A stretch of 62,264 nt of DNA. Source: Escherichia coli. Its GTDB lineage: Bacteria > Pseudomonadota > Gammaproteobacteria > Enterobacterales > Enterobacteriaceae. The position numbers were made by a program, and so were the translations under genes. Below are positions 7,667 to 7,700 of this stretch, piece after piece (positions within the stretch are counted from its first letter, which is position 1; each line of letters starts with the position of its first letter). The notes under the pieces were generated by a model that searched no databases, was not told where the DNA came from, and saw only the letters and a list, made by a program, of their open reading frames with translations. Location: NCBI RefSeq assembly GCF_003334305.1, contig NZ_QOWS01000027.1. One strand, written 5' to 3'.

Positions 7667-7700
7667 CACTCCACTCTCCACTCTCCACTCTCCACTCTCC
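7667..7700. repeat. Tandem heptamer repeat (CCACTCT) x4 plus partial copies
   Basis: Direct reading: cactccactctccactctccactctccactctcc. Confidence 0.8.

Follow-up and report, generated by a model that had tools for sequence, protein, structure and literature searches.

Slippage in the stump of a truncated gene very probably explains a hypervariable heptanucleotide repeat beside an ISEc10-like remnant in Escherichia coli

Heptamers and other short repeats drive phase variation in other bacteria, and the ends of IS21-family insertion sequences bear multiple short repeats that are bound by IstA. As to the genomic setting of the repeat reported here, passages of two papers on the GI-pheV of E. 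coli strain 536 describe a pix fimbrial cluster together with the pgtABCP locus (PMC11537424; PMC7387560), and passages of a third, which cites Lugering et al. 2003, describe a pix regulatory region that is without a papI-type gene and a Pix expression that is phase variable (PMC12388093). The stretch of DNA analysed in this work, 62,264 nucleotides in length and hereafter the window, has the same arrangement as this GI-pheV/PAI V536, namely pgtABCP, a transposase remnant in the place of the papI-type gene, and pixB with the pix operon. A tandem repeat at the locus is not mentioned in the passages retrieved by keyword from these three papers, and a count of the term 'tandem repeat' in PMC11537424 gave 0. 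Full-text searches, which included the 14-mer of two repeat units on either strand and in either register, brought up no bacterial paper on the 14-mer and no account of the locus in a literature that mostly leaves out subscription journals, and a search for pgtA together with VNTR in full-text literature of the same coverage, again mostly outside subscription journals, returned nothing relevant.

In this work, we describe a heptanucleotide array between pgtA and an insertion sequence remnant, and propose that it is very probably a hypervariable VNTR, or simple sequence repeat, that is driven by slippage and lies, without a function of its own, in a pseudogene stump beside an ISEc10-like remnant. 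The features of the locus and the alleles read from fetched sequences are collected in Table 1.

Table 1. Features around the heptanucleotide array in the window, and copy-number alleles by genome record (L numbers are our own labels)
Feature	Position or genome record	Strand	Basis
pgtA, response regulator of the phosphoglycerate transport system, upstream neighbour	6207..7463	+	ORF; RefSeq annotation
Truncated hypothetical gene, 5′ stump that includes the array and stops at the IS junction	7575..7714	+	alignment with L004 and L005
Perfect CTCCACT units (x4), length-variable part of the array	7669..7696	+	direct reading, Tandem Repeats Finder, shuffles
Degenerate units CTCCGCC and CTCCATT, constant in number	7697..7710	+	comparison of fetched alleles
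Left 958 bp of an ISEc10-like (IS21 family) element, with left terminus TATGAGAC and frameshifted, truncated istA	7715..8672	+	alignment
PapB-family regulator gene, first of a pix-type fimbrial operon	9106..9381	+	ORF; RefSeq on identical loci
tRNA-Phe (GAA)	34436-34511	-	window
Allele with 1 perfect unit	L010		fetched sequence
Allele with 2 perfect units	L011, L015		fetched sequence
Allele with 4 perfect units	window, L001, L012		fetched sequence
Allele with 6 perfect units	strain 536 (L136)		fetched sequence
Allele with 7 perfect units	L013		fetched sequence
Allele with 8 perfect units	L003		fetched sequence
Allele with 9 perfect units	L014		fetched sequence
Allele with 14 perfect units	L009		fetched sequence

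The array starts 205 bp beyond the stop codon of pgtA, a gene that carries this label in RefSeq at the identical locus of strains ECC-1470 and 536, and the closest intact gene downstream is that of the PapB-family regulator, about 1.4 kb away. Among the matches listed, a 601-bp query across the array has 100% identity with 19 E. coli complete-genome records, each time on the chromosome, and at identical loci the RefSeq order is pgtA, a frameshifted and truncated istA ('IS21 family transposase'), the gene for the PapB-family regulator, and a fimbrial operon of the chaperone-usher type. The same arrangement adjoins a tyrosine integrase in strains 536 and F11, and within the window the pgtABCP and pix-type genes span about 2.9-20 kb. 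Since a tRNA-Phe gene and the pgtABCP and pix genes occur together, and the same order is found in strain 536 beside a tyrosine integrase, the window is a pheV-integrated E. coli genomic island of the PAI V536 type. The two PAI V536-type strains 536 and F11 both carry the array with a 615-bp span, and the sequence of strain 536 was verified to contain 6 perfect units.

Read directly, positions 7664-7714 of the window are TTTCA (CTCCACT)x4 CTCCGCC CTCCATT CGAC. Tandem Repeats Finder reported an array at 7669-7708 with a period of 7, 5.7 copies, 90% matches and a score of 66, the top score across the whole 62-kb window. The 14-mer of two units, TCCACTCTCCACTC, has 3 overlapping occurrences against 0.03 expected under dinucleotide-preserving shuffles, and none of the 100 shuffles reached 3; perfect short units thus stand head to tail beyond chance, as they do in a VNTR. 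The first-pass annotation, made from the letters of this DNA, had reported at least four perfect copies of CCACTCT at 7667-7700, between pgtA and an IS21 remnant. The direct reading, the Tandem Repeats Finder score and the excess of the 14-mer confirm the copies; in that register four perfect copies lie at 7671-7698, and they are the same array as the CTCCACT units read in another register. The coordinates were right to within a few bases, with the degenerate units extending the array to 7710, and so was the setting, as the end of pgtA and the start of the ISEc10 match show (Table 1).

The place of the junction, counted where at least 80% of the query matched, is present in 184 of 5426 complete E. 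coli genomes, or roughly 3%, and the copy-number ladder was drawn from ranked and evenly spaced BLAST rows that sample these 184. Among the records listed, the full-query spans were 580, 587, 594, 601, 608, 615, 622, 629, 636, 643 and 671 bp for the 601-bp query, that is, exact 7-bp steps that correspond to 1-10 and 14 perfect units and give at least 11 length alleles. Identities were 96.5% for the 580-bp span, 98.8% for the 594- and 608-bp spans, and 97.7% for the 587- and 615-bp spans, and gap columns explain nearly all of the difference. The flanks of the 1-, 4-, 6- and 14-copy alleles differ by 0-1 mismatches in 480 nt, so that, as in a VNTR, alleles differ by whole units on unchanged flanks. 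A divergent flank haplotype (L011 and L012) is without the CTCCGCC unit, yet it varies too, having 2 and 4 copies, and L015 has CTCCACC instead of CTCCGCC. The variation is restricted to the perfect units, which lie on the side away from the IS; the last unit with the junction, CTCCATT CGAC followed by TATGAGAC, was invariant in all ten junction-bearing sequences read.

A repeat that is prone to slippage is expected to vary in length, and the copy-number ladder therefore supports slippage. The first-pass annotation had raised slipped-strand length variation and suggested comparing copy number across related genomes; across complete E. coli genomes the number ranges from 1 to 14 units on a 7-bp ladder (1-10 and 14), and is thus anything but invariant. 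The differences consist of perfect units and are always exact multiples of 7, which argues against an assembly artefact in the array length. Clonal sets had a single allele, as seven CUVET isolates all had the 601-bp span and three MRE162 substrains all had the 608-bp span. The array changes much more quickly than the sequence around it, though not so quickly that recent clones differ; given these uniform clonal sets, we infer slippage from variation in the population, at a rate that is not extreme.

The origin of the array is indicated by genomes that lack the IS. In pgtA-bearing genomes of this kind, the similarity to the window ends at about 7678, and a hypothetical or UCP030791-family gene is annotated there. 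One homologue of the truncated gene is the RefSeq 'UCP030791 family putative phage-derived protein', another, in L005, is intact with 166 aa, and an NCBIfam scan of the intact homologue gave no family match. Aligned with L004 and L005, the IS-free site reads TTTCA CTTCACG CTC(T/C)ATT CGGCAG, which is an unexpanded proto-repeat of two units, and in L005 the proto-repeat lies in frame and encodes ...FHFTLHSAE.... From the IS-free allele to the window, CTTCACG is replaced by (CTCCACT)4 CTCCGCC, while CTCCATT CG is kept and then followed by the IS, so CTCCATT is ancestral gene sequence. All ten IS-junction alleles read have at least one CTCCACT, and both IS-free alleles read are unexpanded. Judged from these alignments, the array arose in situ, by expansion of a weak proto-repeat of two units, within the 5′ stump of the truncated gene. 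The stump starts with a GTG at 7575 and, in the window, has a premature TGA directly before the array. The earlier description of the region as non-coding can thus be made more precise: the region is the stump of a truncated hypothetical gene and is not primordially intergenic.

Two routes to the truncation can be drawn from the junction, which at window positions 7704-7722 reads CCATTCG+AC and then TATGAGAC. It would fit a direct insertion of the IS after ATTCGGC with one substitution, and would fit equally a deletion of about 0.5 kb adjacent to the IS, through ATT(C)G microhomology, from an arrangement like that of L005, where the gene is intact and the IS lies about 105 bp past its stop codon with the junction CGAATTGA followed by TATGAGAC. 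In L005 (E. coli LWY6, 2400-3362), FaeA/PapI and daaA-type fimbrial regulators come after the ISEc10-like remnant.

We propose that truncation of the gene would have released the 7-bp unit from selection, as a unit of this length shifts the frame of an intact gene and its expansion would become tolerable after truncation. Replication slippage through slipped-strand mispairing would then lengthen and shorten the perfect units at the IS-distal end, and the array would thus behave as a neutral, fast-evolving length marker.

The proximity of the IS remnant, with the array stopping only 4 bp short of its left terminus, and the multiple IstA-bound short repeats that IS21-family ends generally have, could suggest that transposase binds the heptamers as subterminal repeats of a degenerate IS21-family end; the first-pass annotation had offered a degenerate multi-repeat IS terminus as the alternative to slippage. 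The segment 7715-8672 is 93.7% identical to nt 1-956 of the 2410-bp ISEc10, while the remainder of the element, including its right end, is absent; the istA fragment matches NCBIfam NF033546 (IS21 transposase) with an E of 5.6e-21, and RefSeq annotates it as a pseudogene. IS ends were read in five elements, each with flanks of its own, from plasmids pEcFELIX705.1 and pECSF1 and three chromosomes; four of them are intact ISEc10 copies and the fifth is an ISEc10-like remnant. The five left flanks are unrelated to one another up to the common TATGAGACGAC, and the five ISEc10-type left ends match the window only from TATGAGAC at 7715 inward, which places the start of the IS at 7715, 4 bp past the array. 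Of about 800 weaker BLAST matches, the majority are ISEc10 copies in which similarity starts at query 309-316, corresponding to window 7708-7715. In the four intact copies, the right end terminates at GACGTCTAATA, and neither AGTGGAG nor CTCCACT units are present in the ISEc10 right end (...GTTGACGTCTAATA).

Checking intact IS21-family members for similar subterminal repeats, as the first-pass annotation had suggested, therefore turned up none in the ISEc10 ends read: the heptamer is absent from the five ISEc10-type left ends and the four right ends. The terminus reading, refuted by the left ends of four intact ISEc10 and one ISEc10-like element that have no heptamer and by the position of the array outside the terminus, is further opposed by the sequence of the array, which runs on from that of the host gene in IS-free alleles and derives from it, and by a copy number that varies, unlike terminal binding sites. 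That the heptamers belong to an IS21-family end is, in our view, almost certainly wrong. As a candidate class, IS21-family terminal repeats were rejected, the heptamers lying beyond the terminus and being missing from the intact ISEc10 copies.

ISEc10 itself (L002, L006, L007 and L008) is 2410 bp long, with the ends TATGAGACGAC... and ...GACGTCTAATA and TA as its first bases; IS21-family ends usually start with TG. Two ISEc10 flanks and the TTCGAC of the window have a TTCG or GAC motif in common, which may hint at a target preference.

The IS could also have made the array itself, for example through serial target-site duplications upon repeated insertion or excision at one site, given that the array was seen only in IS-junction alleles and abuts the junction directly. 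The target duplications of the four intact ISEc10 copies, however, are 6 bp (TTCGCC, GTTGAC and CACTTC), with one that is ambiguous between 6 and 7 bp, and ISEc10 duplications of 6 bp do not match a 7-bp unit. The units proximal to the IS are degenerate and invariant, whereas the perfect and variable ones are distal, and near-identical haplotypes differ in copy number although the IS remnant is unable to transpose. We consider this origin very unlikely, and serial target-site duplication was rejected for the 6-bp duplications and the IS-distal position of the variable units. Slippage in the gene stump remains the preferred explanation.

Whether the array does anything for its neighbours was considered on the basis of sequence scans. 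No sigma-70-like promoter or terminator-like site touching the array was found in the scan around it, and no promoter-like hexamers flank it on either strand. An Rfam scan around the array (E<=1) gave no family, its sole row being a chance-level microRNA match inside istA. Since the array has no associated intact gene, promoter-like site or RNA family, we argue that it has no function of its own and is probably an ordinary, functionless repeat. The opposite view would treat the array as a contingency locus, in which the copy number switches or tunes a neighbour, for example by changing a promoter or by affecting read-through from pgtA into pix. The array is highly polymorphic, no terminator-like site lies between it and pgtA, passages of PMC12388093 describe Pix as phase variable in its expression, and the use of short repeats, including heptamers, in the phase variation of other bacteria speaks in the same direction. 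Yet the array is neither in nor beside an intact ORF, since the stump has a premature stop and istA is a dead pseudogene; about 1.4 kb separate the array from the first intact gene, and promoter-like hexamers were not found flanking the array on either strand. The array thus lies neither inside an intact ORF nor between the promoter elements of an expressed gene, and such a role would be very improbable. A narrower version, in which the array would be a length-tunable element acting on transcription that runs from the direction of pgtA into the truncated regulatory region of pix, by read-through or from a cryptic promoter, is highly improbable; if it were true, the phase variation of Pix fimbriae in extraintestinal E. 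coli with pix would be modulated by copy number.

The module of stump, array, ISEc10-like remnant and pix-type operon was also found in islands without pgtA, where it lies 3′ of AlpA-like helix-turn-helix genes. Examples are L003 4001-4492, with similarity from about window position 7537 and 8 units, and L015 1501-1913, with similarity from about 7575 and 2 units. Recombination has apparently carried the module from one island backbone to another. In L014 (E. coli AR_0089, 206-1547), an IS3-family element about 20 bp upstream of the 9-unit array replaces the pgtA-side flank. In H160 (E. coli MIN6) and H152 (KD0845), the similarity ends at query 340 or 450, after 25 or 135 bp of the IS remnant, which suggests further rearrangements or insertions inside the remnant.

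Scanning genome contigs with (CTCCACT)3 found, among the matches listed, (CTCCACT)n with n = 3-8 at many separate loci in single, unrelated MAGs (L016-L135, for example L055-L076 and L080-L092); enterobacteria were not among the matches listed. Among these matches, Thiotrichaceae S06.Bin195 has at least 22 loci and Acidobacteriota MDV bin60 at least 13, with further examples in rumen Bacteroidales and Clostridia, and the arrays are often bordered by degenerate NCCACTC units. They look like a dispersed heptanucleotide repeat family that is unrelated to the E. coli locus.

In conclusion, the locus is a highly polymorphic 7-bp VNTR that, among E. coli, is confined to those with the pgt-pix module of the pheV island. 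As the island junction occurs in only about 3% of complete E. coli genomes, the array is unsuitable as a generic marker, and it may add resolution in typing and tracing pgt-pix lineages, including the uropathogenic strains 536 and F11. It is a natural example of a proto-repeat in a coding frame that expanded only in alleles truncated at the IS junction (two IS-free alleles were read), and it leaves the understanding of IS21 elements, pgt and pix unchanged.

Compared with known systems, the array resembles the multiple terminal repeats of the IS21 family, the IstA sites, in being a short repeated sequence at the left end of an IS21-family element, but its heptamers lie outside the terminus, vary in number, derive from the host gene and do not occur in the right ends read. 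With the contingency loci of Haemophilus, Neisseria and Campylobacter it has in common a short tandem unit that is not a multiple of 3 and a high copy-number polymorphism; the repeats of those genera, however, sit in an intact ORF or in the promoter of an expressed gene, whereas this array sits in a dead stump. The E. coli VNTRs of the MLVA type are alike in their short, perfect, head-to-tail units and in whole-unit allele differences on identical flanks, and alike also in the presumed slipped-strand mispairing and in being stable within recent clones while differing between lineages.
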